From positions 1-40,129 of the forward strand of contig JAUYMX010000301.1 in NCBI GenBank assembly GCA_030699345.1: a stretch of DNA of 40,129 bases. Reading direction: 5' to 3'. Made by a program: the position numbers and the translations under genes. The notes under the pieces were generated by a model that was given only the letters and a program-made list of their open reading frames with translations, searched no databases and had not been told where the DNA came from. Below are positions 8,245 through 27,044 of this stretch, piece by piece. Each line of letters starts with the position of its first letter. Within the stretch, counting starts at the first letter, position 1. The DNA comes from Methylococcaceae bacterium (GTDB lineage: Bacteria; Pseudomonadota; Gammaproteobacteria; Methylococcales; Methylomonadaceae).

Positions 8245-8274
8245 TGCCCTATTTTGACGACTAGGCAAGACCTG

Positions 8275-8319: not shown

Positions 8320-8322
8320 AGC

Positions 8323-11800: not shown

Positions 11801-14800
11801 CACCAGTGTCCGCGTAGAAGAATTCCAACCTGATCGACTGCAAGTTAAAACCGATATTCCGACAGCGCCCGCCAAAGGCTGGTTGGTGCCTGAGGCGGCC
11901 AAAGCCCGCGTGACGGTCCGTAATCTGTTCGGCACCCCAGCCGAAGGTAACATTGCCAAACTGGAACTGACCGCACGCCCTTGGGCAGGCATTGTGCCGG
12001 GCTATGCCGACTACCGTTTTCGGCCGACCGTGGTAGAAAACATTCCCGATATTCCTCAAACGCTGGGCGAGTTAACGACCAATGCGCAGGGCGAAGCTAT
12101 TTTCGATTTGCCGTTAGCGGCGATTACCGAACCGGTCTATGAAATTGCCTTAGCTGGCGAAGGCTTTGAAAAAGGCGCGGGCCGTTCAGTGGTGGCGATG
12201 GCGTCGACGCTGGTTTCCAGACAAGCTTATCTGCTGGGTTACCGTGCCGACGGTGCGTTGGATTACGTACCCAAAGACACGAAACGTACTCTGGAATTGC
12301 TGGCCTTGGGGGCCGATTTTCAACCGCGCAAAGCGGAAACCTTGTCAGCGGAAATCTATGAAAATCGCTATGTCTCGACCTTGGTAAAACGTGACGACGG
12401 GCTGTATCAATATCAATCGGTGCAAGGCCAGGAGCTGCGCAAAACCCAAGCCGTGTCATTAAATAACGGCGTGACTGGCTTTGTATTACCTAGCGAAGCC
12501 CCCGGCCAGTTCTTTGTAATCTTCAAGAACGCGCAGGGCGAAGAATTAAATCGTGTCGATTACACGGTCGCAGGCGAAGGTAATGTCTCGCGCAACATCG
12601 AACACAATGCCGAGCTTAATTTGACCCTGAACAAAAAGGAGTTCCAACCCGGAGAAACTATAGAACTGCAGATTGTCGCGCCCTACGTCGGTGCGGGATT
12701 GATCACCGTTGAACAGGATGGCGTATTGACTAATCAATGGTTTAAAACCACCACCACCGCATCCAGCCACCGTATTACCTTGCCCAAAAACATCAGCGGC
12801 AATGCCTATCTTTCCGTGGCTTTTGTGCGCTCGTTGGATTCCAAAGAAATCTACATGAGTCCGCTCAGTTATGGCGTGATGCCGTTCAGTATCTCCAAGC
12901 AGCGCTTTACGCAGGAGATTAGCCTGAATGTTCCTGAGACAGTAAAGCCGGGCACACCTCTTGATGTCCGTTACAGCGTTAAAGAGCCGACCAAACTGGT
13001 GTTGTACGCGGTTGATGAAGGCATATTGCAGTTTGCCCATTACAAAAATCCGACACCGCTGGATTATTTTTTCCGCAAACGCGCCTTACAAGTCAACACC
13101 CACCAGATTCTTGATTTGATACTGCCGGACTTTGCTTTAGTGCAAAACCTGTCGGCACCCGGCGGCGATGAAAACGCGGCAATGCTGGGCAAATATAAAA
13201 ATCCGTTTGCCCGCAAGCACAAAGCGCCGATGGCATTCTGGTCCGGCATTATCGACGCGCAACCCGGCGAACATAACTTGTCGATACCCGTGCCGGATTA
13301 TTTTAACGGCAGCATTCGCGTCATCGCCGTGGCTGTTAATGCCGGGAAACTGGCGGTGCCGGTGACTAAAACCGTTGCCAGCCAGGATTATGTGATTCAA
13401 CCCCAACAGCCCTGGGTTGCCGCGCCGGGCGATGAGTTTGATATGGGCGTATTGGTCGCCAACAATAGCGGCGAAGCCGGTAGCCAGTCCTTGCAGGTTA
13501 GCGTTGTCGCTGGCGATTCGCTGGAATTGCTCTCGCCTAATCCGCAGCCCCTGGCGTTGGCGCAAGGGCAGGACGGCACCGTGCGTTTTCATGCCCGCGT
13601 TAAAGATAAACTCGGGCCAATCAACGTGCGTTATCAAGTTACAGGTGGCGGAAAAAGTGCTGATTACAGCGAGGAAATGAGCATACGGCCATCGCAACCT
13701 TTGCTCACCACGCTGCAAGGCGGCGTATTAACCATTGAGGAACAACGCAAAGGTAAAACCCGCAGCCTGGATTTAAAACGCGAGCTTTACGACGAACAGC
13801 GCAATGCCGAACTGGCGGTGTCAATCACACCGGCGGCTTATTTGCGCGGTATTGTTGATTTTTTGAAAAACTATCCATACGGCTGTACCGAACAGATCAC
13901 CAGTCAGGCATTCCCGGCTGCCGTGCTGGGGGCTAATCCTGAGTTGGGTTTATCAACGGCGGATGTCGACAAGCTGTTGGATCGAAGCATACACACCCTG
14001 CAAACCCGCCAAAAACATGACGGTAGTTTTGGCTATTGGAGCGTTGCGGACGAGGGCGAACCGTTCTATTCCATGTACGCCACCCATTTGTTGCTGGAGG
14101 CCGGGGAACGCGGTTACAAAGTACAAGAGGCCATGTTGACGCGGGCCCTGCATTTTGCCGATGAATATTCGCAAAGTCAGCAAACGCAGCAGTACCAGCA
14201 TGACGCCCAAGCCTATGCGTTTTATTTGCTGGCCCGCAACGGCCAGAATGTCGCCGAGCGCTTACGTGCGTTTGAAGCCGAATTGCAATCCCAAAGTCAG
14301 GCGAGTGGCAACCCGATCAGTAGCCGAACCCGGTTTTTTATCGGCGCTGCTTACAAGCTGCATCATCTGGATCAGGATGCCGATCGCCACTTTGGCGAGT
14401 TTCAGCGCCAGTGGCAAGCCACTGGCCAACTGCCCAAAGATATTCAAAATAATCCGGAAGATCTAAGCCTGTATCTTTATTTGGTGGGTAAACACCTGCC
14501 GGAATTGATTGATAGTAAAGACCCGAAATTCGGTCATTATCTCCTCGAATTGGCTCAGGATTTGGTTAAACAACGCATGAATTCTTACCGCGGCTCCATG
14601 GCCTTGCTGGGCTTGGGGAGTCTGTGGTCGCGCTTTGATCATGGACAGGATCAGAACCAGCAACAAGCCTTCACCGTACTGGCCGGTACACCGCTGGCGC
14701 AACTGGAACTGCAAGGTAAATCCGTCAAAAGTACATTGCTGTCGCCAACCACAAGGCCGCTGGAAATACGCGGCGAAGGCACCTGGAATTTGTATTATCA

Positions 14801-15269
14801 ACTCAGTGAACGCGGTTACGATCGTTCCGCGCCAACAGCCGCCATTGCCGAAAAACTGACCATCAACCGTCAGTTGCTCAACGAAAAAGGCGAAAAAGTC
14901 GAACAAATCGGCTTGCAGGATAAATTGCACATTCGTGTGGCCTTGCATCCGGACCATGCCATGCAAGACATTGCCGTCGTCATGCTGATTCCCGGCGGTT
15001 TTGAAATAGACCTCAGCGAGCAAGGCTTGGCGCAGCGTAAATCGCTGCCAATCGACAAAAAACCATTATGGCAACCTGATTACATCGACGTGCAAGAAGA
15101 CCGCTTGGTGTTGTTCGGTGCGCTGGACGGCGGTGAAAAATATTTCGAATTCCGCTTAAAACCGCTGAATTCGGGAACGTACAAAGTGCCGCCGGTGTTC
15201 GCAGAAGGCATGTATGACACTGAAATTCTGTACCGGGGGCTGGCGGATGTTATTAAGGTGAAGGAGTGA
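8862..15269 (+). CDS. Bacterial alpha-2-macroglobulin family lipoprotein (YfhM/ECAM type) with an intact thioester motif
   Basis: Giant ORF. Signal peptide plus lipobox (LLILTGC) follows the ATG at 8862; the ATG at 8847 or the ORF-track start at 8787 are alternatives. Thioester motif YPYGCTEQITSQ has CTEQ at 13884-13895. pbpC lies downstream, as in enterobacterial yfhM-pbpC. Confidence 0.85.
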   Translation: MRIVPRKNVFSVLLTLVFLLILTGCKEETKTAAPPAVYLLNHQHWTPALVLNFTDALAPPDDNRQALLDATPQLEPAIEGEWHWQDPSRLVFLPANKTLQPDTTLKISLDKVKLYPGYRLSQKNLTFHTPPMQITRQECRWQDSDDAPLRRALELLVEFNYPLVNPSFTAALDNGTEIGINTNQGTLITASTDFLVRPSQDSKIIAKLHSGSVQLQTRDQSVINAKLATGADCELAMVRGDWDKPEANTQPTVNGIEISMDDGKLNVRLTGEALTESAKKTGAGQVVTNGAKISPELEGSWKVGESAEGPDLIFTPKSPDAFKPGSPYEVTVAASVFPTLIFNKPDYSASLTTLDMSAAINSIQLYSDPVDPKIKRATATLIFSYPPSRDSLAAKTSAWSRLLPAKSFQDAVAYEISYDDKNPRLAYLKTVPLKIADKPSEIKIALDNGITAASGGKPAQGSSRTLAIPGALDYLQVTELDVNSVIKEDDSIERLIMLQTNVALKEPAGLEKAVEVYLLPDCQIKNPARPALCAQKDVTEWQSANQVDAEVIKLSTAVPVKWRDSGSEDKTIQHLTFAAPENQQLFIKVNKGIASIDGFYLSKDARYLKELGANKRELKILHEGALLSLSGNKKLGVTARGIDNIHVELQRVLPHNMQHIVQFTSGSFQNPRFKLPIEHFAEKFEYDETLPPGKTMERNYLTVDFGKFTRDKGFPPRGLFILSVAEKKPDTCKDKDTADTTASADTQTSDEHADETACVDNSDDSETSGVTQDKRLVLLTDMGLVVKTSTNGQQDIFVMSFRTGLPVSDVQISLLGKNGVALFSGKTDRQGKISFPTTEGLTAEKTPTVYLAEKDGDLSFLPYNRDNRQLDISRFDIDGLRDNADSLQAYLFSDRGIYRPGDLVHVGVILRKRDWSALPSGLPLKAIITDPENQEVWSRTLAFGAEGFEEINWLSPDGGKTGSYRIELIINDKNKKSLGSTSVRVEEFQPDRLQVKTDIPTAPAKGWLVPEAAKARVTVRNLFGTPAEGNIAKLELTARPWAGIVPGYADYRFRPTVVENIPDIPQTLGELTTNAQGEAIFDLPLAAITEPVYEIALAGEGFEKGAGRSVVAMASTLVSRQAYLLGYRADGALDYVPKDTKRTLELLALGADFQPRKAETLSAEIYENRYVSTLVKRDDGLYQYQSVQGQELRKTQAVSLNNGVTGFVLPSEAPGQFFVIFKNAQGEELNRVDYTVAGEGNVSRNIEHNAELNLTLNKKEFQPGETIELQIVAPYVGAGLITVEQDGVLTNQWFKTTTTASSHRITLPKNISGNAYLSVAFVRSLDSKEIYMSPLSYGVMPFSISKQRFTQEISLNVPETVKPGTPLDVRYSVKEPTKLVLYAVDEGILQFAHYKNPTPLDYFFRKRALQVNTHQILDLILPDFALVQNLSAPGGDENAAMLGKYKNPFARKHKAPMAFWSGIIDAQPGEHNLSIPVPDYFNGSIRVIAVAVNAGKLAVPVTKTVASQDYVIQPQQPWVAAPGDEFDMGVLVANNSGEAGSQSLQVSVVAGDSLELLSPNPQPLALAQGQDGTVRFHARVKDKLGPINVRYQVTGGGKSADYSEEMSIRPSQPLLTTLQGGVLTIEEQRKGKTRSLDLKRELYDEQRNAELAVSITPAAYLRGIVDFLKNYPYGCTEQITSQAFPAAVLGANPELGLSTADVDKLLDRSIHTLQTRQKHDGSFGYWSVADEGEPFYSMYATHLLLEAGERGYKVQEAMLTRALHFADEYSQSQQTQQYQHDAQAYAFYLLARNGQNVAERLRAFEAELQSQSQASGNPISSRTRFFIGAAYKLHHLDQDADRHFGEFQRQWQATGQLPKDIQNNPEDLSLYLYLVGKHLPELIDSKDPKFGHYLLELAQDLVKQRMNSYRGSMALLGLGSLWSRFDHGQDQNQQQAFTVLAGTPLAQLELQGKSVKSTLLSPTTRPLEIRGEGTWNLYYQLSERGYDRSAPTAAIAEKLTINRQLLNEKGEKVEQIGLQDKLHIRVALHPDHAMQDIAVVMLIPGGFEIDLSEQGLAQRKSLPIDKKPLWQPDYIDVQEDRLVLFGALDGGEKYFEFRLKPLNSGTYKVPPVFAEGMYDTEILYRGLADVIKVKE

Positions 15270-15277
15270 TAACCGGC

Positions 15278-15613
15278 ATGGCTGGTTTGAAAATGACTAC
15301 GATGACGGTTAAAGAAATGCGCGCCGCTCGTGAGCGCGGCGAATCGAAAACCGATCTGGAGTTCTTGCACCACAACCAATTGGCCGGTTTAGAACCCGAA
15401 GATGACGAGGACGCCCCCGACGCCAGTGTTGTCATGCGGGAAGCAATCGCCAAACGCCGGGCTGGACGCCCAGCGGGCAGCGGAAATAAGGAGGAGGTTG
15501 CCATCCGTTTTGATAAGGACGTATTGGAAGCGTTTCGATCCACTGGTCGCGGCTGGCAAACACGGATGAACGACGCACTCAAAACGTGGCTAAAAGAACA
15601 TGCTGCGAGGTAA
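15278..15613 (+). CDS. BrnA-like (DUF4415) type II antitoxin family protein, with no cognate toxin gene
   Basis: The C-terminus RRAGRPAGSGNKEEVAIRFDKDVLEAFRSTGRGWQTRMNDALKTWLKEH matches the BrnA/DUF4415 pattern (GRP...V.iRlD.DVle.F...G.GwQTRiN.aLr). The start is uncertain: GTG at 15266 overlaps the macroglobulin stop, and ATG is at 15278. Confidence 0.6.
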   Translation: MAGLKMTTMTVKEMRAARERGESKTDLEFLHHNQLAGLEPEDDEDAPDASVVMREAIAKRRAGRPAGSGNKEEVAIRFDKDVLEAFRSTGRGWQTRMNDALKTWLKEHAAR

Positions 15614-15698
15614 GTCCGGCAAATGATTCGAGTAAATTGCAGGTTGGTTAATCTTGAGTCTCTGCTGAGTTTCGCGATGCTCTACCCAGCCTACGAGC

Positions 15699-15872
15699 TA
15701 TGCCATCGCTACTGGAAGAGCCGACCGAGATATAAGTCCGGATTTAAAAGGTGCAATGCCACCAGCCACATCCGGTAACTTTGCAGCCGTAACCGAGCCA
15801 CAAGAAGCCGCTAAATTATTACGTGCTATAGATGCTGAAGGCAGTCTTAAATTTAAGAGCAGTAAGCAATAG
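15699..15872 (+). pseudogene. Remnant of a P4-type tyrosine integrase (about 55 internal codons only)
   Basis: Translation YAIATGRADRDISPDLKGAMPPATSGNFAAVTEPQEAAKLLRAIDAEGS matches the conserved YAiaTGRAeRDp..dLrGAL...aaitep.e...LLraid block of P4-like integrases. There is no N-terminal domain and no catalytic domain. A stop lies upstream at 15666 and the frame ends at TAG 15870. Confidence 0.6.
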
Positions 15873-15893
15873 GTAGTTGTTCATTTTTTATAT

Positions 15894-15931
15894 ATGTACA
15901 TTATTTGTGAACTGACTAAAATAATGTACAT
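15894..15931. promoter_or_regulatory. Perfect 12-bp inverted repeat, candidate operator upstream of the wHTH gene
   Basis: ATGTACATTATT (15894-15905) and AATAATGTACAT (15920-15931), separated by 14 nt and ending 26 nt before the start at 15957. Confidence 0.4.
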
Positions 15932-15956
15932 GCAAAAGTGTTCAAGAGATATATAG

Positions 15957-17000
15957 GTGAAAGAACAAGACATATTAGGTGGTGCGATAAGTGCATTAAC
16001 ACTAGCTACAGGCATCGTGATAGGGGTAGAGCGCCATGAGTATAGGCAAGAAAACTTAATTTTTGATGCAACAGGCAGCTTATATGTTGATGGTGAGCAA
16101 ATACCACTTGTTATTGAAGTTAAGTTTAGGCCGACACCTACGATACTTATGCTGTCAAAGCTAAAGGATATTCCGGGGCGATTACTTATAGTTGCTGATT
16201 ATGTAAATCCAAAATTGGCAGAACAACTAAAGGAACAGGATATTTGGTTTTTGGATACTGTAGGTAACGCATATATAAACCAAAAGCCCGTGTTTGTATT
16301 CATTAGAGGAAATAAGCCGACAGAAAAGCCAGTTATACGTACTCTAGGCCGTGCATTTCAACCCACAGGACTGAAGATTATTTACACCTTTCTGTGCAAT
16401 CCAGAGCTAGTTAATGCGCCCTATCGTGAAATTGCTCGAACAGCAGGTGTTGCATTGGGCACGGTAGGCTGGGTAATGACAGACCTTAATGAACTAGGAC
16501 ACCTTGTCGATATGGGCAATCGAGGTCGCCGCTTAAAAGATAAACAGAAATTGTTAGAGCGCTGGATTATTGCCTACTCAGAAAAGTTACGTCCCAAGTT
16601 GCAAACAGGAAGGTACAAAGCGCCAAACCCAGCCTGGTGGCAGACAGCCGATTTGCATAATTTACAAGCTTACTGGGGAGGTGAAGTAGCCGCCGATAAG
16701 TTAACACATTATTTAAAACCGGAAATCATCACTTTATATGTGATGGAAAAATGGGCGGCCAAGCTAAAAATCACCAATCAATTAAGAAAAGATCCAGACG
16801 GCGACGTGGAAATACTCAATGCTTTTTGGGACGTTGAGAGTGAAAAAAATAGAAAAGATATTGTTAACCCAATATTGATATACGCCGACTTGATGGCAAC
16901 CGGCGACCCCAGAAACATTGAAACAGCTCAAATTATTTATGAACAAAAACTTGCTCAACATTTCCGGGAAGATCAGCGAGCCGATAATCAAAGTTTATGA
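15957..17000 (+). CDS. wHTH-containing protein, putative regulator/antitoxin partner of the downstream nucleotidyltransferase (AbiEi-like arrangement)
   Basis: 347-aa ORF in an AT-rich segment with a GTG start. The central segment YREIARTAGVALGTVGWVMTDLNELGHL looks like a winged helix-turn-helix. It is immediately followed by, and probably overlaps, an NTase-fold gene. The functional label is inference. Confidence 0.4.
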   Translation: MKEQDILGGAISALTLATGIVIGVERHEYRQENLIFDATGSLYVDGEQIPLVIEVKFRPTPTILMLSKLKDIPGRLLIVADYVNPKLAEQLKEQDIWFLDTVGNAYINQKPVFVFIRGNKPTEKPVIRTLGRAFQPTGLKIIYTFLCNPELVNAPYREIARTAGVALGTVGWVMTDLNELGHLVDMGNRGRRLKDKQKLLERWIIAYSEKLRPKLQTGRYKAPNPAWWQTADLHNLQAYWGGEVAADKLTHYLKPEIITLYVMEKWAAKLKITNQLRKDPDGDVEILNAFWDVESEKNRKDIVNPILIYADLMATGDPRNIETAQIIYEQKLAQHFREDQRADNQSL

Positions 17001-17811
17001 ATTGATTAAAGAAGTAGCCAACCAAAACAACGTGAAATTTTTTGTTATTGGTGCGACAGCCTGAGACATGGTGTTTGAATACGGCTACGGCATACCAGCA
17101 TCCAGGGCGACAGGAGATATTGATTTAGCAGTTCAAGTTGCAACATGGACTGAGTTTCAAAGCCTAAAAAACGCATTAATAGCAACAGGACAATTTGTAA
17201 TCGATAAAATGATGCAACGTGTTGTGTACTACCAAAACGATATACCAATAGACATTGTCCCATTCGGAGCTATTGAAAATGAAAGCAATATTAGCTGGCC
17301 GCCGGATGGTAGCTTAAAAATGAATGTTGCAGGATTTAATGATGCTTTTTACTTCACCCAAACCGTCAGGTTACGCGAAAACCCCAAATTAGAAATTCAA
17401 GTTGTCACTCCCGCCGCACTGGTGATTTTAAAGCTAATGGCATGGCAGGATCGGTCATCAGAACATAACAAAGATGCCATTGATTTAGCTTTTATTTTAC
17501 GCTGGTATCTGGACACAGGGCATACCGAAAGATTAACAGAGCAACATAACGATTTATTAGATGATGATTTTGATTTCGAGCTGACAGGCGCAAGACTTTT
17601 AGGCCGCGATATTGCTGGTATCGTTTCAGTGCAAACCAAACAAAAATTGCATGAAATTTTAAGCATAGAAACTGGCGAACAAAAACAATATCGGCTGATT
17701 GAGGCGATGACAAACCGACAAAATGGACAGACGTTTGAAAAAAACTTGGCACTGCTACAGCACTTATATTTAGGCTTTAACGAAACAAAAGATAACAAAC
17801 TTCAGAATTAG
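16939..17811 (+). pseudogene. Nucleotidyltransferase-fold protein (AbiEii/MNT-like) interrupted by an in-frame TGA at 17062-17064
   Basis: The track ORF 17068-17811 starts with MVFEYGYGIPASRATGDIDLAV (NTase G..D.D motif). The same frame upstream reads MNKNLLNISGKISEPIIKVYELIKEVANQNNVKFFVIGATA-TGA-D-MVFEY. The N-terminal helix and the first strand of the fold therefore lie before a stop codon. Confidence 0.55.
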
Positions 17812-17842
17812 CAAAAATAATTAGGATCGTATGATGGGTAGA

Positions 17843-17870
17843 ACGCAGTGAAACCCATCTTGGGCGCTTA
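17843..17870. repeat. REP-like hairpin remnant
   Basis: GATGGGTAGAACGCAGTGAAACCCATC forms a 7-bp stem (GATGGGT/ACCCATC). It resembles the GGTGGATAAGCGCAGCGCATCCACC family and lies between the NTase gene and pbpC. Confidence 0.4.
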
Positions 17871-17891
17871 AAGCAAGGCAAGCCAAAATAC

Positions 17892-20198
17892 ATGAGATTT
17901 ACCGCTAACGCGTTGAAACTGTCACCAATCAAGCCAGCACTGTTAGCCGCTGTGTTACTGCTATTGATCTGGCTGGGTTTGGGTCTTACCCCTCAACCCC
18001 TGCTGGTTAACCGCGCCAACGGCTCTTATGCCGTTACCGACAACAACGGCCATTTGTTGCGGTTGAGCCTGACGTCTGATGAAAAATACCGGCTATGGAC
18101 GCCGCTGGTCGAGCTCCCGCAAACCTTACAAAATGCCACCTTGCATTACGAAGATCGCTGGTTTTATCAACATCCTGGCATCAATCCGGTAGCTTTGTGC
18201 CGAGCGGTTTTGAGCAGTCTGGTTCCCCATAATCGCTGGATGGGCGCATCGACATTAACTATGCAATTGGCCCGCCAGCGTTGGCGGCTGAAGACGGATA
18301 CCGTTACCGGCAAGCTGAAACAGATGGCTTATGCCTTGTGGCTGGAACGGCATTTCAGCAAAACCGAACTGTTGCAGGCCTATTTAAACCTTGCACCTTA
18401 CGGCGCCAACATTGAAGGCGCGGGCGCTGCCGCCTGGGTTTATTTTCACAAACCGGTGTCGGCGCTTAGCCAGGATGAAGCCCGCGCGCTGGCATTGATT
18501 CCACAAAATCCCAGTGCGCGGGCGCCGATGACTCCGGCGGCGTTGCAACGGCTGCGTCAGGCTTGGCGAACTGCCTACGGCGATGATCCGGGATTCGACA
18601 GACTTTGGTTTAGGTTGCGTAAAGATCTGCCGTTTCGAGCGCCGCATTTTTCCGAACGACTGCATGCGCTTCATCCAGACGCGGCAACGCTGCCTTCGAC
18701 GCTGGATACTACCGTTCAGGAATTAAGCGAAGAATTGCTGGCCGGATTTTTACGCCAGCATCATCTGCAAGGCGTTGTTAATGCCAGTGTGATGGTGGTG
18801 CATGCGCCGAGCATGTCTGTGTTGGGTTATGTGGGGTCTGCGGATTATTTCAATCGGGATATTCAAGGCTATGTTAACGGCTTGAAAGCCCCGCGTTCGC
18901 CCGGTTCCACGCTTAAACCTTTTATTTATGCGCAGGCCATTGCGCAAGGGTTGATTACGCCGGATACCCGCGTTAAGGATACGCCGTTGCGGATGGGCGA
19001 TTACCAGCCGGAGAATTTCGAACGCAATTTCTACGGGCCGTTGTCGGCGACCGATGCGTTGGTACGCAGTCGTAATATTCCGGCGATCAGTTTGTTGGCG
19101 CAACTGCAAAAACCGACTTTTCACCAGTTTTTACTACAACCGGGCATACCTATTCCTAAGCAAGCGGCCAATTACGGACTGAGCTTGGCGATAGGCAGTG
19201 CCGAGATTTCGATGGAAGATTTACTCAGGCTGTATGGCTTGCTGGCTAATAATGGCGAGTTGAAAGCGTTGCGCTGGTTAAACCAAACCGACCCATCACC
19301 GCAAGCGAATAAGCCGCTATTACTGCCGGAAGCGGCGTTTTTAGTGAGGGAAATGCTGGAAACCAATCCACGCCCGCAACGCAGTTTTGGCGGGCGTAGT
19401 TTCGGTCAACAGCAAGCGGTCGCCTGGAAAACCGGTACGTCTTCGGGCCTGAAGGATGCCTGGGCCATCGGCATCATGGGTGATCTAATGGTTGGCGTTT
19501 GGGCGGGTAATTTCGACGGCAGCCCCAATCGTCATTTAGTTGGTCGGGAATTGGTCGGCCCCTTGTTGTTTGGCGTTCTCGATGCCATCGCTATGGAACG
19601 TCCGATGGCCGACTCTGATGCAAAATCGCCCACCGGCCTAAAGCGTATAGAAATCTGCCCGTTATCCGGTCAGCCTGTTTCGCCCTGGTGTCCGCGTGGC
19701 AAAACCGGCTGGATTATTCCGGGCGTATCACCGATTAAAACCTGTACCCTCCACCGCCGGATCAGGATTAATCCGGCCAACGGTTTACGCCTGTGTCCGG
19801 ACGATCAACGCCAAGGCGAAACGCGGGTGGCAGAATTTTGGGACAGCGATGAATTAGAGTCTTTTCGCCAAGCCGGAGTGCGGCGCGACAATCCACCCGC
19901 CTTCGAGCGTTCATGTGACGATGCAACCGAAAGCAATGCCGCCGCCAATCCGCCCAAGATTGTCTCGCCGCAGGCGGGAGTGAGTTATCCGGTCAGGGCG
20001 GGGCAGCAAAACACCATAGAATTTAGCGCCATCTCTGCGGGCGGACGACATCGTTTATTTTGGTTTGTAGACGATGATTTTATCGGCGAAGGCACTACGG
20101 TATTTTGGCCCGGTAAACCCGGCCAGTTTGCAGTCGCGGTTATTGACGATCAGGGGCAGTCGGCCAGTGCCGCTTTTAAGGTGGTGCCGACCGATTAA
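17892..20198 (+). CDS. pbpC: Penicillin-binding protein 1C (bifunctional glycosyltransferase/transpeptidase)
   Basis: GT51 motifs EDRWFYQHPGINP and GASTLTMQLAR. Transpeptidase motifs SPGSTLKP (SxxK), SRN and KTGTS. It has a C-terminal extension of the PBP1C type, an N-terminal membrane anchor, and a macroglobulin gene upstream. Confidence 0.9.
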   Translation: MRFTANALKLSPIKPALLAAVLLLLIWLGLGLTPQPLLVNRANGSYAVTDNNGHLLRLSLTSDEKYRLWTPLVELPQTLQNATLHYEDRWFYQHPGINPVALCRAVLSSLVPHNRWMGASTLTMQLARQRWRLKTDTVTGKLKQMAYALWLERHFSKTELLQAYLNLAPYGANIEGAGAAAWVYFHKPVSALSQDEARALALIPQNPSARAPMTPAALQRLRQAWRTAYGDDPGFDRLWFRLRKDLPFRAPHFSERLHALHPDAATLPSTLDTTVQELSEELLAGFLRQHHLQGVVNASVMVVHAPSMSVLGYVGSADYFNRDIQGYVNGLKAPRSPGSTLKPFIYAQAIAQGLITPDTRVKDTPLRMGDYQPENFERNFYGPLSATDALVRSRNIPAISLLAQLQKPTFHQFLLQPGIPIPKQAANYGLSLAIGSAEISMEDLLRLYGLLANNGELKALRWLNQTDPSPQANKPLLLPEAAFLVREMLETNPRPQRSFGGRSFGQQQAVAWKTGTSSGLKDAWAIGIMGDLMVGVWAGNFDGSPNRHLVGRELVGPLLFGVLDAIAMERPMADSDAKSPTGLKRIEICPLSGQPVSPWCPRGKTGWIIPGVSPIKTCTLHRRIRINPANGLRLCPDDQRQGETRVAEFWDSDELESFRQAGVRRDNPPAFERSCDDATESNAAANPPKIVSPQAGVSYPVRAGQQNTIEFSAISAGGRHRLFWFVDDDFIGEGTTVFWPGKPGQFAVAVIDDQGQSASAAFKVVPTD

Positions 20199-20254
20199 TG
20201 GGTTGTGTTGATTACGGATTCCAACCCCCCTACCGTTAACTTCAAATCACCCCG

Positions 20255-20297
20255 ATGTAATACATGTCTTAAAACATTAACTTGCCTGTCACTGAAA
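20255..20297 (+). promoter_or_regulatory. Conserved leader box (copy 1) about 125 nt upstream of riboswitch-like copy 1
   Basis: ATGTAATACATGTCTTAAAACATTAACTTGCCTGTCACTGAAA is closely similar to 21597-21639. It may be a promoter or operator, but the function is unproven. Confidence 0.3.
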
Positions 20298-20420
20298 TGT
20301 CTCAATCAACCAGTAATCTACAGGCATTCAAAAAACCAAGCGGTTGATTGCTTTGGTCTTTAGTAAAAATGGTTCGGGGGGCGCGTTTTACCCCTGTGTT
20401 GTTATTTCAAAATCAGAACA

Positions 20421-20634
20421 GTGGCAAAAGCCAAACCTATCGTGAGGTAGGGACGGAAAACTTCGGGTCTTTATCGATGAAAAAGATCGATTAAAAAGGA
20501 GAGCCTCGAAAACCCTGCACTTCGATAAACTCAGTGCGAACGGTGTCTTATAAATAAGTTCCGTTCGTGGTGAGCTTGTCGAACCATGAACGGAGTGGGT
20601 TTTTCGAGGTTTCCAAAGATAGCCGGGTTGCCAC
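20421..20634 (+). ncRNA. GEMM-I (c-di-GMP-I)-like riboswitch aptamer, copy 1, interrupted by a 106-bp MITE
   Basis: The 5' half is GUGGCAAAAGCCAAACC-UAUC-GUGA-GGUA-GGGACGGAAAACUUCGGGUCUUU. The 3' half, AAAGAUAGCCGGGUUGCCAC, resumes only after the MITE. GUGGCAA (20421-27) pairs perfectly with UUGCCAC (20628-34). The aptamer ends 23 nt before the ATG at 20658. Confidence 0.55.
20504..20609 (+). mobile_element. MITE-like element, copy A, with terminal inverted repeats CCTCGAAAACCC / GGGTTTTTCGAGG
   Basis: 106 bp with 12-13-bp terminal inverted repeats and an internal palindrome CCGTTCGTGGTGAGCTTGTCGAACCATGAACGG. A collinear copy in the opposite orientation lies at about 7982-8244. Confidence 0.65.
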
Positions 20635-20657
20635 CTTATTAACGTAAGGACTTATTA

Positions 20658-21251
20658 ATGCAAGGAAATAACTGTATCAAATGTGGCTTGGTCTTGATGT
20701 TGCTATCAGTCGTCAATACTGGCAACGCTTCAAGTAAGGCATTTAACGAATCATCGTTTTTAATTGTTAATGAAAGCGTTGCTATTGATAGGTTTCAGTC
20801 CGGCTTTAATGCCGCAAATCAATTAAAGGCATCGTTAAGCTCGACAACCGGAAGCAGTATTTCAGCTGTGACGGGCAGTAAAAATGCATGGGCGATCCAA
20901 ACGAATTTATGGCTGCTTAACGCTAATAAACCGGCTGGTAATCCGCAAGCACTCATTGAACCCTTTGCCAATAGCGCCTTAGCTTTTAACACAGGATCGA
21001 CTTGGGATGCGATGGGTGAAAAGCAATGGCTGGCAGATTGGAGCGTTAGCGTCAGCAACATTATTAATACCTTAAGTGTTAGTGCGGTTACGGTGTCGGT
21101 TATTTCAATGCTTGGTTCATCAGAGATTCTCGCGGCTGTAGCTACTATCTCAGCTGTTCCGTTATCAACTTTAGTTTGGGTATTTCTTACCGGTTTAATG
21201 ATCTTGCTCGCCACTCGCCGCAAACATGCGGTGTTAGGGATAGTGGCGTAA
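20658..21251 (+). CDS. Secreted protein with a PEP-CTERM-class C-terminal sorting signal (degenerate VPL variant)
   Basis: N-terminal signal peptide. The C-terminus ISAVPLSTLVWVFLTGLMILLATRRKHAV has a short motif, a hydrophobic helix and a basic cluster, which is the architecture of exosortase substrates. Confidence 0.6.
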   Translation: MQGNNCIKCGLVLMLLSVVNTGNASSKAFNESSFLIVNESVAIDRFQSGFNAANQLKASLSSTTGSSISAVTGSKNAWAIQTNLWLLNANKPAGNPQALIEPFANSALAFNTGSTWDAMGEKQWLADWSVSVSNIINTLSVSAVTVSVISMLGSSEILAAVATISAVPLSTLVWVFLTGLMILLATRRKHAVLGIVA

Positions 21252-21309
21252 TAACTGATTGGATTGTCTTGATGTATTCGAAATTGCTAACGAACTTCTT
21301 CAGGCAATG

Positions 21310-21386
21310 GTAGGGGCGGGCCTTGCCTGCGAACAATAAAATCTAAATTGCCGTATTGGATAATCGCGGGCAAGGCCCGCTCCTAC
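21310..21386. repeat. REP-like long palindrome (GTAGGGGCGGGCCTTGCC ... GGCAAGGCCCGCTCCTAC)
   Basis: Arms of about 20 bp in inverted orientation flank an AT-rich spacer of about 35 bp. Confidence 0.7.
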
Positions 21387-21439
21387 TGGGTTTTCAATAA
21401 GCATGAGTAGACCGCCAAGGATGAAATGACGGTTAGGAT

Positions 21440-21484
21440 GTAGGTGCGGATTTATCCGCACTGGGCGAATAAATTCGCCCCTAC
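21440..21484. repeat. REP-like palindrome pair (GTAGGTGCGGATTTATCCGCAC / GGGCGAATAAATTCGCCCCTAC)
   Basis: Same family and organisation as 8275-8319. Confidence 0.8.
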
Positions 21485-21596
21485 ATTATCGCCTTATTCG
21501 ACAGCACGCTTAGGCAGCTCGGCCTGCAACAGCGCAGGTTTGGGCTGGAATTATTAGGGCGAGCAGCGTCCGTCGTTGGTTAATGAAGATGCTGAT

Positions 21597-21639
21597 TATG
21601 TAATACATGTCATCAAACTGTAACCAAGCTGTCACCGAA
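21597..21639 (+). promoter_or_regulatory. Conserved leader box (copy 2) upstream of riboswitch-like copy 2
   Basis: ATGTAATACATGTCATCAAACTGTAACCAAGCTGTCACCGAAA parallels 20255-20297. A second shared box AAAAATGGT.CGGGGG.CG follows in both leaders (about 20364-20383 and 21783-21806). Confidence 0.3.
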
Positions 21640-21855
21640 ACAACACAACAACTCTGGAATAATTCGCACCAAGTTGAGGGCGGCTGAATAGGGTTATGAC
21701 TTAACGAATTGGATGTAACTAGGGAACAAGGATGGCACGAATAGGGAGTGGGCTTTGGAAGATAGTAGGGAGTAAGTCGGGGTAAAAAAAATGGTAGCGG
21801 GGGCGTAGGCGGCAGTGTTTATCTGTTAGATGGTGTCGGGCAGAATTATAAGTGT

Positions 21856-21937
21856 GTAAAAGCCAAACCTGTTGTGAGGCGGGGACGGAAAGTTACAGGT
21901 CTTGATAGATAACACTCAAGACGGCTGGGCCATCACC
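21856..21937 (+). ncRNA. GEMM-I (c-di-GMP-I)-like riboswitch aptamer, copy 2
   Basis: GUAAAAGCCAAACC-UGUU-GUGA-GGCG-GGGACGGAAAGUUACAGGUCUUGA-UAGAUAACAC-UCAAGACGGCUGGGCCAUCACC. It has a GNRA-capped first hairpin, an ACGGAAA junction and a 7-bp second stem with a GG bulge. It ends 47 nt before the ATG at 21985. Confidence 0.6.
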
Positions 21938-21984
21938 TTGTGTAAATAATACTTTTTATTTTTTAAACATAAGGCATTAAATCA

Positions 21985-22770
21985 ATGAAACAATTTTCTA
22001 AATCTTTATTAGCAGTTGCTTTGTTAGCGGCTACAACTGGCGCGGCTAACGCAAGTATTAATACTAGCAGCGCCACAGCCGCAGAAGCCTATCTGTCTGT
22101 CTATGATTCGAGTCAAAAATTAACTTTTACCCTGGATTTGGGGTTGGCTATGGGCGATCTGACTGACAATATCAGCAACGCTGACTTTAGCAGAACATAC
22201 GATTTATCTAGTAATGCAATGTGGAATTCTTTTTCCAGTAATTTGAACACAGCAACAACCGTTTATGGTGTTGTTGTTGGTTTTGGTACTAAGGTGTTGG
22301 CAACTGGTCCCGCTGTCAGTGTGCCCAAATTCAGTACGGTTGCAACTGCTTCAGGAGCTGCAACTGCTATCAAAAATCATGCATCTGCAATTAACAGCGG
22401 CGCAGGGGTTGATAATCCTGGCGTAGCTAATATCGTAGCCAACCAGTTGAGTTCATTAGTTGCCGATGGCGATACTGCAAATACTGGGCAACATAATCAA
22501 AATAACCCATTTAGCACTCTTTTTGGAACTAAAAGTGATGCTGCTGCCAATCTTATTTATGGCAAGGACTATCAAGATCTGGGCATAAATAATTTTTGGT
22601 TATACAACTCAAATGCAGGCACTCAAGCATTTGCAACTCAATGGAATTTGGTAGGCAGCGAACTAAGTTTAAAAGTAGCAGCAGTGCCATTGCCTGCTGC
22701 GGTTTGGATGTTTGGCGCCGGTTTGATGGGCGTATTAGGTCTTACTCGTCGTAAAAACGCTGCTGTTTAA
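21985..22770 (+). CDS. VPLPA-CTERM (PEP-CTERM class) sorting-domain protein
   Basis: Signal peptide MKQFSKSLLAVALLAATTGAANA. The C-terminus VAAVPLPAAVWMFGAGLMGVLGLTRRKNAAV is a textbook VPLPA-CTERM signal. Confidence 0.8.
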   Translation: MKQFSKSLLAVALLAATTGAANASINTSSATAAEAYLSVYDSSQKLTFTLDLGLAMGDLTDNISNADFSRTYDLSSNAMWNSFSSNLNTATTVYGVVVGFGTKVLATGPAVSVPKFSTVATASGAATAIKNHASAINSGAGVDNPGVANIVANQLSSLVADGDTANTGQHNQNNPFSTLFGTKSDAAANLIYGKDYQDLGINNFWLYNSNAGTQAFATQWNLVGSELSLKVAAVPLPAAVWMFGAGLMGVLGLTRRKNAAV

Positions 22771-22846
22771 GCGTTGAACTTAGGAGGGGTGTTTTAGCAT
22801 TCCCATTCCCTCCGCTTTATTTAACTGATTCCAAGTGAGAAATCCA

Positions 22847-24493
22847 ATGAAAAAATTAGTTTTAGGCGCAGCCATCGCTGCGGCGTTAACAGCCACGGCT
22901 GCTCAAGCGGCAATTTCCGTTGATGCCAATGGCGTGCCAGTTATTAACCCAGCTGATACCAACATTTTGTATTTATCTGGTGCTTCTGCCGCAGAAAAAT
23001 TCATCGAAAAAGTAATCACCGATACGTCAGTGCCTGCGGTTGATAAAATTTGCGACACTTCTAAAAAGATGTATAAGTTTCAAGATCCCGGTGCGATATC
23101 GCAATATGCCTATTTGTGCGAAAGAGCCACGACTAACCCTGCCGTACCTAGCAATAAAGCCAATATTCTGATCTATAAACGCAGTGCCGGTGGTTCTGCG
23201 TTTGGTGTTAGCCCAATTGTGGCTGAAGCTAATGGTAATACAGCGGCTGCAACGATTGAATTTTTGAAAATCAGCTCTGCATGTACAGTGACTACTCCTG
23301 CTCTCGCGGGTGCATTAACTAAAATTAGCTGCGCTTACGATCCTGCCGATGCAACTAAACATGTAGTGCATATTCCTGATTTCGGTATCTCTGACGTCGA
23401 TCCTGGTCAGTTCAGCGGTAACAATGCACCGATTGATTCGTCAACCGGCTCTCCTTATGAGAATGTAACGATTGATGATGTCGCGAAATTGACGGTAAAA
23501 AGTGCTTCTGCGCTGACCTTTGGCGTGCCTGTCACCAAAAACTTGTATTTTGCGTTGCAAGCGGCACAAAAATCCACAGGCGCAGTGCCTGCTACTTGTG
23601 TAGTGGGTGATGAAACTGAAGCCTGTATGCCTAGCTTGAGTTCTGCGCAAGTGGCTTCTATTCATGCTGGTGCCATTGTTAATTGGAACCAATTAAAAGT
23701 CGGTACGGTTGGTTTGTATGACTGGGTGAATACCCCTGCAAACGGCGCTAGCGCTTATGCACCAGGTGCGCCTTATTTGCATACTTGCCGTCGTGAAAAC
23801 GGTTCCGGTACGCAAGCCCAATCCAATATTAAGTTCTTAGCTGATCCTTGTACTGCAGCCGCCGCCGGAACTCAGCCAGCAGGTGATGTTGGTGCCCTGG
23901 GATTGGGTGAAGGTGAGGGCTATCCAATGATTCACGAAAACAACAGTTCAGGTAACGTGGATCTTTGTTTGAATGAATTGCAAGATGGTACTAACGCTCC
24001 AAATGCTTTTGAAAATACTTACGGTGTCCGTTGGGCAGTCGGTATTCAGTCATTGGAAAAATCAACAGCAGCAGCTACTAAATACCGCTTTGTTAAATTG
24101 GACGGTGTCGCACCTACTTTGGCTAATGTGGTTAAAGGTAAATACCGCGATTGGGCAGAAAACACTTTCCAATACGGCAACACGCATGTCTTTTCTAGTA
24201 ACAGCACTGAAAACACAGCCTTGAAAGCCTTGACTAATGCGATTATTAAATCATCTGGCGCACCAGAAGTAATGGCCGCGTTGAACAATGGCTTTTCTCA
24301 TACTTTTACAACTGCTAAAGGCGCTTATTTGGCAGTACCTACCAACTATGATCCACAACCAAATGGTGCTTTCTTGTCTACAAGACCGGTGAATCCATTC
24401 AGCCATGCAACGTCTGCTGTATCGGTTGATAACTGTCGCGTACCTTCCATTTATAACAATGGTGCAATCGGTTCAGGTGACACTGGCTTGTAA
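22847..24493 (+). CDS. Secreted protein with a PstS-like (type 2 periplasmic binding fold) region
   Basis: Signal peptide MKKLVLGAAIAAALTATAAQA (the ATG at 22847 is preferred over the GTG at 22835). Segments LYLSGASAAEKFIEKV, GISDVDPGQF and RRENGSGTQAQ resemble the PstS/PBP_like_2 pattern (G.Sa...l...., R...SGT). There is no C-terminal sorting signal. The assignment is weak. Confidence 0.35.
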   Translation: MKKLVLGAAIAAALTATAAQAAISVDANGVPVINPADTNILYLSGASAAEKFIEKVITDTSVPAVDKICDTSKKMYKFQDPGAISQYAYLCERATTNPAVPSNKANILIYKRSAGGSAFGVSPIVAEANGNTAAATIEFLKISSACTVTTPALAGALTKISCAYDPADATKHVVHIPDFGISDVDPGQFSGNNAPIDSSTGSPYENVTIDDVAKLTVKSASALTFGVPVTKNLYFALQAAQKSTGAVPATCVVGDETEACMPSLSSAQVASIHAGAIVNWNQLKVGTVGLYDWVNTPANGASAYAPGAPYLHTCRRENGSGTQAQSNIKFLADPCTAAAAGTQPAGDVGALGLGEGEGYPMIHENNSSGNVDLCLNELQDGTNAPNAFENTYGVRWAVGIQSLEKSTAAATKYRFVKLDGVAPTLANVVKGKYRDWAENTFQYGNTHVFSSNSTENTALKALTNAIIKSSGAPEVMAALNNGFSHTFTTAKGAYLAVPTNYDPQPNGAFLSTRPVNPFSHATSAVSVDNCRVPSIYNNGAIGSGDTGL

Positions 24494-24579: not shown

Positions 24580-24599
24580 GCGTTGGAGCTAAGCAAGAT

Positions 24600-24704
24600 G
24601 TAGGTGCGAATTTATTCGCACTAAGCAAGGACGTAGGGTGGATAAGCGCAGCGCATCCACCGATAGACTACGACTTGTGGATGCGCTGCGCTTATCCACC
24701 CTAC
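24600..24704. repeat. BIME-like REP cluster
   Basis: GTAGGTGCGAATTTATTCGCAC comes first. It is followed by GTAGGGTGGATAAGCGCAGCGCATCCACC and its inverted copy GGTGGATGCGCTGCGCTTATCCACCCTAC, forming arms of about 29 bp. Confidence 0.85.
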
Positions 24705-24861
24705 AACTGGTCTCTGTGCTCAGGCCGGTAATTGTTAATGCAACCGGCAATAAATAAGCGAACGTAACCCCGTTGTCACAATAGCTTAACGTAAGCTCAA
24801 TAAAATGACGGACTAGCGGTTTTCAAAGGGAAAACCGGCACACACAGACAAAATAGATGTC

Positions 24862-26912: not shown

Positions 26913-26933
26913 GTTACAGATTTTTATTGTGTT

Positions 26934-27004: not shown

Positions 27005-27044
27005 TAACTAAAGCGTGTTAATTATTTTTGGTAAAGGTAACCCC

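Follow-up and report, generated by a model that had tools for sequence, protein, structure and literature searches.

A MITE inserted in the second helix of a c-di-GMP-I-class riboswitch aptamer in the leader of a methanotroph gene

In the leader of a 197-aa exported-protein gene of a Methylovulum-like methanotroph lies a riboswitch whose poorly conserved distal P2 has taken up a 116-bp MITE, a non-autonomous transposable element. The folding models make it somewhat probable that this insertion is tolerated, leaving an interrupted aptamer that is still able to work.

The interrupted aptamer

A cmscan search of the window (the whole stretch of DNA that was analysed, 40,129 nt) with default filters gave for this leader only a marginal match to RF01051 at 20420-20498 (35.2 bits, gathering score 35), in which the 3' half was mis-aligned. 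With permissive filters RF03167 was found to span 20421-20636 at 50.0 bits (E 4e-11), the P2 loop taking up a single insertion of 144 nt. Since this model aligns both 20421-20472 and 20615-20636 with a single insertion, pairing of the two parts by chance is ruled out, and the joining of the halves as one aptamer, together with the formation of 10 out of 10 Rfam P2 pairs across the insertion, argues against a coincidental aptamer likeness of 20615-20636. The parts of the aptamer are as follows.

20421-20636 (+): whole split c-di-GMP-I-clan riboswitch aptamer, insertion included (cmscan, RF03167)
20421-20427 (+): P1 5' strand GUGGCAA, pairing with 20628-20634 in the RNAfold MFE; RF03167 P1 columns
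20430-20457 (+): first hairpin and junction (cmscan alignments; pair probability 0.98-0.99)
20459-20472 (+): P2 5' strand AACUUCGGGUCUUU, pairing with 20615-20629 across the insertion; cmscan P2 columns
20473-20498 (+): native distal P2, 13-nt tandem units ATCGATGAAAAAG and ATCGATTAAAAAG (allele alignment, MFE)
20615-20636 (+): 3' part of the aptamer, P2 3' strand AAAGAUAGCCGGGUU and P1 3' strand GCCAC, same in all alleles

The filled aptamers as they stand score 50.0 bits (window) and 48.4 bits (the filled allele L014) against a gathering score of 59 for RF03167, a shortfall due to the insertion penalty. When the element is excised, giving the sequence of the empty allele L003, the score rises to 63.8 bits, which is above the gathering score and places the aptamer in the clan, and the empty-site orthologues reach 63.8-68 bits with RF03167 as the best-scoring model. 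By model alignment 20421-20636 is a c-di-GMP-I-class (GEMM-I clan) riboswitch aptamer in a 5' leader. Two more copies of this class were identified within the window by cmscan, at 21852-21937 and 26927-27005.

The two halves lie where the initial annotation had placed them, with GGGUCUUU at 20465-20472, AAAGAUAGCCGGGUUGCCAC at 20615-20634, GUGGCAA at 20421-27 and UUGCCAC at 20628-34. The perfect 7-bp closing helix that it described is drawn by RNAfold; the Rfam register gives U20628-U20629 to P2 and leaves a shorter, imperfect P1 (20421 and 20423-24 with 20632-33 and 20636, one pair being non-standard). Inspection by eye suggests a possible helix of GUGGC (20421-25) with GCCAC (20630-34). The first hairpin consists of the stem 20436-41/20446-51 with a GUGA (GYRA) tetraloop at 20442-45 and the pairs C20431-C20432/G20455-G20456. 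In the Vc2 numbering we take G20430 to be equivalent to G20, A20457 to A47 and C20631/20632 in GUUGCC to C92, and under this presumed map all three ligand-contact positions are present by model-consensus alignment. P2 forms across the insertion in the MFE as two helices, 20462-66/20623-27 and 20467-72/20615-20. The arrangement of two hairpins, AAA and a GNRA loop (Weinberg 2007) was found, with the AAA linker at 20457-59, the GUGA loop and P2 at 20459-72/20615-29.

Between the halves an AUCGAU hairpin had been noted, and it is indeed present at 20473-20491. It is, however, native riboswitch sequence, arising from a polymorphic 13-nt tandem duplication (two copies of ATCGATKAAAAAG) whose two units pair as 20473-78/20486-91 and which among relatives is present as one or two units.

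As in the c-di-GMP-I riboswitch (GEMM; RF01051, CL00126; Vc2 of Vibrio cholerae), two adjacent hairpins are joined by AAA, the first hairpin carries a GNRA-type tetraloop, the junction sequences GCCAAAC, GGGACGG-AAA and AGCCGGGUUGCC are conserved and the aptamer is located directly upstream of an exported/surface protein gene. Unlike in that riboswitch, P2 in the window holds a 116-nt mobile element with a predicted three-way junction at its end, and the aptamer is 216 nt long instead of the usual about 80-100 nt and marginal against Rfam thresholds. RF03167, the c-di-GMP-I-GGC variant, gives the best score for both empty and split copies, and its model likewise has P1 and a variable P2 loop, but the model G after the GC pair (GACGC-G-AA) is A20457 here, as in the canonical GACGC-A-AA. 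Membership of the GGC variant was rejected despite the best score, the model G being aligned to A20457 in a blank match column. If "GGC" denotes that G, as the name suggests, its hallmark is absent here and the binding sites would be of the canonical type.

The inserted element, its family and the empty sites

Comparison with orthologous leaders and with other copies of the element gave the following borders and internal parts.

20499-20614 (+): MITE, 116 bp, its RNA one long imperfect hairpin; missing from orthologous leaders, ends fitting the family consensus
20499-20515 (+): left terminal inverted repeat GAGAGCCTCGAAAACCC (family consensus GRGAACCTCGAAAAACCC, 18 bp)
20597-20614 (+): right terminal inverted repeat GGGTTTTTCGAGGTTTCC
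20495-20498 (+): target-site duplication AAAG, left copy; empty alleles read TTAAAAAG followed directly by ATAGCC, with a single AAAG
20615-20618 (+): target-site duplication AAAG, right copy, pairing with C20469 and U20470-72 (upper P2)
20517-20543 (+): "module B-like" internal segment GCACTTCGATAAACTCAGTGCGAACGG, paired in the RNA fold to the 5' portion of module A
20561-20593 (+): "module A" CCGTTCGTGGTGAGCTTGTCGAACCATGAACGG, a 33-nt hairpin core (genome scan)
8005-8249 (-): second, degenerate MITE copy, with its left inverted repeat at 8232-8249 and carrying the 17-nt segment

Exactly this segment is missing, with one AAAG kept, in the orthologous leaders L003-L012, L017, L018 and L169-L173, so that the empty site expected in related strains is seen, and in-silico removal of 20499-20618 yields 96 nt that match the L003 aptamer exactly, L003 being from a related Methylovulum-like contig. 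The intact aptamer in close relatives is about 83-97 nt, and L017, the orthologue farthest removed (its leader is 76% identical), is also empty. The empty alleles were found on many independent contigs, and assembly artefacts are therefore unlikely. The same comparison, together with the family consensus, corrects the 106-bp element first proposed at 20504-20609 to 116 bp at 20499-20614 plus the 4-bp AAAG.

A pattern search over the window and the collected loci revealed 36 matches with 26 distinct flank pairs, 116-211 bp long, from which about 17-20 distinct insertion sites are estimated. At 13 further sites the element is flanked by perfect, A/T-rich 4-bp duplications (among them TAAT, TTTG, TATT, AAGA, GTAT, TACT, AATT, AACT, ATAT, AGAA, TAAA and TTTT). 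The family thus shows terminal inverted repeats (17/18 bp in the element at 20499-20614), a duplication of fixed length, occurrence at many unrelated loci, no transposase capacity and a filled/empty polymorphism, and by these features 20499-20614 is a non-autonomous transposable element. When searching roughly 1 Mb of loci for a parent IS with the same inverted repeats, no likely repeat pair 0.7-3 kb apart was found; inverted-repeat pairs at 1.2-2.8 kb were two separate MITEs or a MITE struck by another insertion. A second copy within the window, initially placed at about 7982-8244, is real, but it lies on the minus strand and retains the left inverted repeat only. It is without the right inverted repeat, and a nested element of ~127 nt (~8028-8154) breaks its module A at GCTC.

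That the ~120-140-nt segment is ancestral and was deleted elsewhere, or that the aptamer likeness of 20615-20636 is coincidental, has in our judgement a negligible probability. Nothing was found in favour of this. Deletion from one AAAG to the other could in principle mimic an empty site, but the segment has the ends of a family that recurs, with its inverted repeats and 4-bp duplications, at ~17-20 unrelated sites, and L017 and other lineages are empty. The finding is the opposite of an ancestral, conserved segment without other copies, and the proposal that a MITE divides the second hairpin of a riboswitch aptamer is borne out by the empty orthologues, the excision to L003 and the multiple copies with duplications elsewhere.

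Filled alleles were identified in five NCBI MAGs and two SRA assemblies, all with intact ORFs. They are of three kinds, with a 116-nt insert, with a 133-nt insert, and with a 116-nt insert next to a single 13-nt unit, and are spread over three or more sequence backgrounds with a flank divergence of up to about 5%. L013 and L014 have a 17-nt indel in the module B-like segment and L168 has four substitutions inside a 7-nt stretch of the same segment, and between the filled lineages these are the only changes in the MITE, none being scattered. In the window and L014, pbpC is 100% identical and the leader 99.8%. Because of this near-identity and the few, clustered differences, the filled segment is regarded as young and probably spread by recombination; the spread of the filled allele looks recent and recombination-driven. 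The locus is a recombination mosaic and the filled alleles are near-identical round the insertion, for which reasons conservation was rejected as a test of function.

Module A was found by genome scan in genomes of many phyla, with a pattern degenerate at two positions, and between module variants triplets covary, which together suggests constraint on the module hairpin. Literature searches for the internal modules, by translated peptide and by DNA string, returned nothing relevant, only primer coincidences. BLAST of the canonical A-B module pair against plasmids matched 28 records, with an annotated feature in none of the 28, and Rfam at permissive thresholds gave for the MITE and the canonical A-B doublet chance-level miRNA/snoRNA matches and a weak match to RF02901 (31 bits, gathering score 97). 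The constraint on module A, and the presence of the filled allele in three backgrounds, apparently moved by recombination, would fit a co-opted element that has added a function, for example as a stabilising or processing hairpin, an antisense partner of RNA from other copies or a site for a factor recognising modules A/B, the gene then being regulated in a way qualitatively unlike its empty-site relatives. We consider such co-option very improbable: the copy in the aptamer shows no sign of selection, module B is the very part in which the three filled alleles diverge and the other copies sit at unrelated intergenic sites.

Predicted folding and the fate of the switch

Folding of the filled 216-nt RNA with RNAfold gave an MFE of -84.3 kcal/mol in which P1 and P2 form, as do the first and the native distal hairpins, and the MITE stands as a separate arm, and the 233-nt variant of L013/L014 showed the same behaviour. 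The pair probability of the long-range P2 was 0.76 for the excised RNA and 0.64-0.68 for the filled ones, compared with 0.009 when the insert was replaced by 100 dinucleotide-shuffled sequences (0.027 with the duplication kept), and enforcing the aptamer within the leader cost +3.83 kcal/mol excised and +3.96 filled (about +0.1 extra). The initial annotation had offered both inactivation of the aptamer and tolerance of the element; an aptamer fold is predicted with and without it, which favours tolerance in thermodynamic terms, under a model that takes no account of ligand binding, of tertiary docking or of the kinetics of folding during transcription. For both alleles with a single unit, the filled L168 and the empty L005, the MFE is a non-aptamer alternative, which is therefore attributed to the one-unit allele and not to the MITE.

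In the tolerated state, the duplicated AAAG would rebuild the 3' strand of upper P2 beside the conserved AUAGCCGGGUU and the MITE RNA would pair with itself, inverted repeat with inverted repeat and module B with module A, so P2 would end in a three-way junction and not in a hairpin loop. The ligand-binding junction, made up of P1, the first hairpin and lower P2, could still form, and the interrupted RNA would then still bind c-di-GMP and control the gene. In the RF03167 model the insertion site is the P2 terminal loop, and natural alleles range there from 17 to 31 nt. For GEMM RNAs with a GYRA tetraloop, a P2 receptor is described as "almost never present" and the length of P2 as variable (PMC1950547). 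As judged from the sequences, the insertion site is a permissive one.

The MITE RNA alone folds at -52 kcal/mol (z -7.3) into a nearly continuous duplex of ~45 bp, a plausible RNase III substrate. By analogy with the Correia elements, such a cut would sever the aptamer. A simple scan of the element detected no sigma-70 promoter or simple terminator consensus inside it. The motif GGGUUUUU lies in the 3' side of the element stem, and behind the long stem come GGG and then UUUUU, at which a degree of termination might occur, beyond what a simple scan detects. In folds of the growing transcript, the P2 5' strand briefly pairs with the left end of the MITE, GGAGAGCCUCGAA, before the right inverted repeat exists, a possible kinetic trap, and in the predicted fold the new three-way junction starts just 3 bp above the conserved GUC/GAU pairs.

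These features bear on the reading, which we think possible but less probable than not by a clear step, that the riboswitch is disabled or uncoupled by the element. With 120 nucleotides more to transcribe, the 3' strands of P2 and P1 would come late, or the RNA could misfold, P2 could be altered in its geometry, or an RNase III site or a weak terminator could arise, leaving the gene constitutive, silenced or under the small Shine-Dalgarno hairpin only, with aptamer halves that have not yet decayed. The transient pairing of the P2 5' strand, the long stable hairpin with GGGUUUUU in its 3' side, the score of the filled aptamer below the Rfam threshold and the recent insertion indicated by pbpC, the leader and the lack of scattered substitutions are all consistent with such a loss. 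Against it, the equilibrium fold and the aptamer cost are essentially unaltered by the element, which carries no detected terminator or promoter consensus, the insertion falls within a region of naturally variable length (PMC1950547), and the filled allele occurs in several backgrounds and assemblies with the ORF always intact.

The mode of control also matters for this choice. The parts downstream of the aptamer are as follows.

20634-20660 (+): putative expression platform (MFEs with and without the aptamer enforced)
20658-21251 (+): downstream ORF, 197 aa, with a signal-peptide-like N-terminus and a C-terminal tail of VPLS, a hydrophobic stretch and RRK

The platform hairpin CCUUAU/GUAAGG (20634-39/20644-49) covers part of the Shine-Dalgarno sequence AAGGA (20646-50), with the ATG at 20658, and C20634 is a partner either in P1 or in this hairpin, whose stem is conserved and loop variable among orthologues. 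Any control is probably translational, via a small Shine-Dalgarno hairpin abutting P1, in which case slow folding would count less and the disabling of the switch would be less expected. The Shine-Dalgarno sequence was unpaired at 0.41 with the aptamer enforced and 0.32 with it prevented, in filled and excised leaders alike, a difference too small for the ON/OFF logic to be read from it.

The downstream gene had been called a PEP-CTERM gene, a designation that the HMM searches did not confirm: the sorting-domain models (PF07589, TIGR02595-type) gave no match in Pfam/NCBIfam and the 197-aa ORF had no HMM match at E<=1 in either collection. A neighbouring 261-aa protein has sub-threshold PEP-CTERM/VPLPA-CTERM matches. 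By eye, the VPLS-hydrophobic-RRK tail of the 197-aa protein resembles a PEP-CTERM motif.

Comparison with known elements and significance

The family resembles Correia/CREE of Neisseria, ERIC/IRU of enterobacteria and RUP/BOX of pneumococcus in being small, with inverted repeats, a short duplication and many copies, in forming a strong RNA hairpin once transcribed and in its intergenic or untranslated sites (PMC10969869, PMC3184786). It differs from them in its inverted repeats, its 4-bp duplication and internal hairpin modules that are common across phyla, and in that the copy at 20499-20614 lies inside a riboswitch aptamer. In the MITE reviews PMC10969869 and PMC3184786, riboswitches appear only as structures that MITEs might form, and in the literature searched no earlier report was found of a riboswitch aptamer that holds a MITE. 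The present case shares with Clostridioides difficile a mobile or self-folding RNA element physically tied to a c-di-GMP aptamer. In that organism a c-di-GMP-II riboswitch adjoins a group I intron, forming an allosteric ribozyme in which the two cooperate. Unlike that pair, which stands side by side, the element here is a DNA transposon relic within the aptamer.

It is very unlikely that the split aptamer works as a c-di-GMP sensor to which the MITE arm, beyond being carried along, adds a new property. If this were true, the property might be, for example, RNase III processing that depends on the ligand, a more stable mRNA or the recognition of modules A/B, and the leader would be a natural case of modular riboswitch evolution by transposition, with a self-pairing transposon and a helix rebuilt by target duplication.

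The filled and empty leaders represent a natural, population-level allele pair of one riboswitch in which the sole difference is a self-folding 116-nt insertion in a peripheral helix. Since standard Rfam scans miss or mis-align split aptamers, as in the match of 35.2 bits with the wrong 3' half, riboswitch censuses in repeat-rich genomes may undercount. The pair raises the questions of how much additional structure is tolerated in P2 of a c-di-GMP-I aptamer, whether a transposon can, through its target-site duplication, enter an RNA helix in a structurally "seamless" way and whether the control of methanotroph surface proteins by second messengers is rewired by MITEs, and because the alleles differ by one insertion and the excised sequence is the wild allele, all three are directly testable.

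Interruption of the riboswitch 1 aptamer

The Rfam scan revealed three aptamers of the c-di-GMP-I clan, referred to as riboswitches 1, 2 and 3.

Aptamers found by the Rfam scan
20420–20498, + strand, c-di-GMP-I-clan aptamer (riboswitch 1), 35.2 bits
21852–21937, + strand, c-di-GMP-I-clan aptamer (riboswitch 2), 47.2 bits
26927–27005, + strand, c-di-GMP-I-clan aptamer (riboswitch 3), 53.8 bits

The first match only just reaches threshold, with a 3' half poorly aligned, to AU-rich sequence. Using cmscan with permissive filters, RF03167 spanned 20421–20636 at 50.0 bits (E 4e-11) with one insertion, of 144 nt, located in the P2 loop. This joins both halves and places the true 3' half at 20615–20634, as the initial annotation had proposed; the strings it quoted were all found in place. 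In this alignment 10 out of 10 P2 pairs form across the insertion, namely A20459-U20629, A20460-U20628, C20461-G20627, U20462-G20626, C20464-G20625, G20465-C20624, G20466-C20623, G20467-U20620, U20468-A20619 and C20469-G20618, and the helix is lengthened by three more U-A pairs (20470–72 with 20615–17). The aptamer is a member of the c-di-GMP-I clan, with RF03167 as its best-scoring model. It was not classified as a GGC variant since A20457, an A also found in the canonical consensus, stands where RF03167 has a G after the GC pair, the G which we infer the name to denote.

The annotation had also placed a MITE in the second helix, with a second copy in the window. Both exist, the former with wider bounds than the suggested 20504–20609 and the latter on the minus strand, interrupted and without its right repeat.

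Element copies and nested elements
20499–20614, MITE of 116 bp, flanked by AAAG at 20495–98 and 20615–18
8232–8249, - strand, left repeat of the second MITE copy
~8028–8154, small element starting TCAAGAAACAGCTTTTTT..., at GCTC in the hairpin module of the second copy
~8326–8452, 95%-identical second copy of the small element, 298 nt downstream of the first

Alleles with and without the element

Contigs were fetched for 14 homologues of the 197-aa protein encoded downstream, two of which are named in the sources (Methylovulum sp. and Methylococcaceae bacterium). The order pbpC-leader-ORF is kept in most loci, with type II secretion genes in place of pbpC in L013, L017 and L171, and there are two length classes of the intergenic region.

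Alleles of the leader
Empty (L003–L012, L017, L018, L169–L173): ...GGGTCTTT-(17 to 31 nt)-TAGCCGGGTTGCCACC, AAAG once
Filled (window, L001, L013, L014, L168; MITE in brackets): ...TTAAAAAG[GAGAGCCTCGAAAACCC...GGGTTTTTCGAGGTTTCC]AAAGATAGCC

Genes upstream in the window (Pfam labels taken from orthologous loci)
8787–20198, upstream genes, including one alpha-2-macroglobulin-like of 2160 aa
15957–17811, AbiEi/AbiEii toxin-antitoxin pair
17892–20198, pbpC

Two further contigs (L015, L016) start within the MITE and a third (L002) in the aptamer 3' half directly past it, so assemblies evidently break at this repeat. Removing 20499–20618 from the window leaves 96 nt identical to the aptamer of L003, and the empty alleles score 63.8–68 bits against RF03167 (gathering score 59). 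The empty site that the initial annotation had suggested looking for in related strains is thus present, as orthologous leaders lacking the segment and carrying a single AAAG; together with the identity between the excised window and L003 this contradicts the view of the segment as an ancestral, conserved part of the leader. The distal P2 loop is made up of a 13-nt unit, ATCGATKAAAAAG (window 20473–20498 and orthologues), present once in L005, L168 and L171, twice in L003, L009 and the window, and as a diverged counterpart in L017. The AUCGAU hairpin is found only in two-unit alleles, unit number varying among empty and filled alleles alike, and is native sequence arising from tandem duplication of the unit.

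Identity between the window and L014 is 100% for pbpC, 99.8% for the leader and only 83% for the 197-aa ORF. In L013 the leader is the same and follows another upstream gene. L168 differs from the window by ~5% in pbpC, ~4% in the leader and one 13-nt unit fewer, with the MITE at the same site; the window is equally close to L003 (empty) and L168 (filled). These same-site copies differ only in the internal module B (20517–20543 in the window), which holds 17 nt extra (TACCCACAGGGCATAAA) in L013 and L014 and just four substitutions, inside a 7-nt stretch, in L168 (AAGCTCACCACG, in the window AAACTCAGTGCG). Both module B states recur in MITE copies at other sites, an indication that copies have undergone gene conversion with one another. 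The alleles are most simply read as the product of a single insertion of fairly recent date that homologous recombination spread within a mosaic locus, the 17-nt indel and a conversion-like patch being acquired later. Compared with L003–L014, the region 17892–24493 is a recombination mosaic, in which the 261-aa PEP-CTERM-like ORF (21985–22770) is only ~66% identical to every relative and its neighbours 82–95%; the picture is one of surface-protein cassettes, seemingly hypervariable, that follow conserved riboswitch leaders. The comparison shows that the filled allele is not rapidly purged and that its ORFs are still intact, and has no power to detect post-insertion selection on the aptamer.

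The MITE family and its modules

A metagenome scan with a left-end pattern gave 30 loci, which pooled with the window and NCBI MAG loci amount to 36 pattern matches and 26 distinct flank pairs, an estimated 17–20 distinct insertion sites. The consensus ends are GRGAACCTCGAAAAACCC and GGGTTTTTCGAGGTTCCC, and perfect 4-bp A/T-rich duplications occur at 13 further sites (TAAT, TTTG, TATT, AAGA, GTAT, TACT, AATT, AACT, ATAT, AGAA, TAAA, TTTT and others). Copies range from 116 to 211 bp, as some contain the 17-nt segment or a ~50-nt nested insert. No parent insertion sequence was found in the retrieved loci. In Pantoea and Acidovorax loci (L061, L087) the TCAAGAAACAGCTTTTTT start again lies at this GCTC, there in module B, suggesting that this small element nests site-specifically within these modules.

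The 33-nt core CCGTTCGTGGTGAGCTTGTCGAACCATGAACGG (module A, 20561–20593) translates as PFVVSLSNHER. When species-representative genomes were scanned with a pattern degenerate at two positions it was found in at least 119 DNA stretches from many phyla, the matches listed including Methylococcaceae, Gallionella, Rhodocyclaceae, Dehalococcoidia/Chloroflexota chromosomes, Geobacter, Nitrospirota, Fibrobacteres, Pantoea and Acidovorax. Among the matches listed the core usually lies within about 0–60 nt of an inverted partner, CCCTTCGACAAGCTCAGGGCGAACGG (PFDKLRANG), with which triplets covary (TGG/CCA, CCC/GGG, GCA/TGC), and at some loci the same repeat-B-A-repeat build has other terminal repeats. 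Neither core nor modules matched an Rfam family above chance or an annotated feature in the plasmid matches, and no paper or annotation on the core was found in the literature searched.

Distinct from the MITE are several families of short, GTAG-initiated palindromic repeats, REP-like and intergenic (8272–8320, 21437–21485, 24597–24705, 37141–37212). Three tandem 117-nt repeats (26604–26954; 100/95/69% identity) with REP-like GTGGATGCGC...TCCACC palindromes lie directly upstream of riboswitch 3, the last overlapping its first ~28 nt. Riboswitch 3 precedes a 3363-aa TPS/filamentous-haemagglutinin-like gene, past which inverted copies of the repeats are found (37237–37367).

Predicted folding and possible control of the downstream gene

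The MITE is situated just distal to the conserved P2 stem, in a region RF03167 treats as a terminal loop. The first hairpin has a GUGA (GYRA) tetraloop; with such a loop the P2 tetraloop receptor is almost never present, and P2 stems vary in length (Weinberg et al. 2007, PMC1950547). The duplicated AAAG adjoins AUAGCC and thereby regenerates the 3' strand AAAGAU of upper P2. Predicted probability of long-range P2 pairing was 0.76 in the excised and 0.64–0.68 in the filled leader, compared with 0.009 for 100 shuffled inserts (0.027 with the duplication retained), and enforcing the aptamer (leader up to +30 of the ORF) costs +3.83 kcal/mol in the excised and +3.96 kcal/mol in the filled leader. 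Isolated MITE RNA folds at -52 kcal/mol (z -7.3), with repeat predicted to pair with repeat and module B with module A. The MFE structure of the 216-nt filled aptamer (-84.3 kcal/mol) comprises P1 (20421–27/20628–34), junction pairs 20431–32/20455–56, the first hairpin, P2 and the native distal hairpin, with a third arm formed by the MITE. The 233-nt form of L013/L014 behaves identically. L005 (empty) and L168 (filled), which both have a single 13-nt unit, fold to the same alternative MFE structure; this is therefore not due to the MITE.

On these predictions the likeliest reading, by a modest margin, is that the c-di-GMP riboswitch can still fold and probably still functions, the MITE being tolerated as a self-contained arm. 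A less probable but serious alternative is that kinetic effects, cleavage by RNase III or some degree of termination have inactivated or uncoupled the riboswitch. In folds of the growing transcript the P2 5' strand does pair briefly with the left end of the MITE, a pairing resolved once the right repeat is made, and a scan of the MITE showed neither a σ70 promoter nor a simple terminator consensus.

The end of the aptamer lies 22 nt ahead of the ATG (20658). A small hairpin (20634–39/20644–49), whose stem is kept and loop variable among orthologues, is predicted to overlap part of the Shine-Dalgarno sequence AAGGA, and C20634 is able to join either this hairpin or P1, suggesting control at the translational level. 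Predicted Shine-Dalgarno accessibility shifts little between aptamer prevented and aptamer enforced (0.32 versus 0.41), equally in filled and excised leaders. If the start of the coding region is added, the RNAfold structure has the conserved junction AAGCCA (20428–20433) pairing with UGGCUU (~20685–20690, codons ~10–11), displacing P1, again equally in both; this pairing may belong to the expression platform or be due to chance. The downstream gene had been taken for PEP-CTERM, but neither HMM library recognised the 197-aa protein as such; sub-threshold PEP-CTERM/VPLPA matches were found for the 261-aa protein of the next gene, which follows riboswitch 2. A 43-nt box, ATGTAATACATGTCTTAAAACATTAAC...CTGTCACTGAAA with palindrome ATGTAATACAT, is located ~125–255 nt upstream of riboswitches 1 and 2 (20255–20297 and 21598–21640) and shows hardly any variation, L017, the most divergent of the orthologues, included. 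The box may serve as a promoter or as a site for a regulator; no σ70 consensus was detected.

The riboswitch split by a MITE, as initially read, is right in substance. Riboswitch and MITE are each of known kind, and a MITE inside a riboswitch aptamer was not found in the literature searched. The mosaic hairpin family of modules A and B may deserve a study of its own. The split riboswitch is a neat natural experiment and not a new mechanism.
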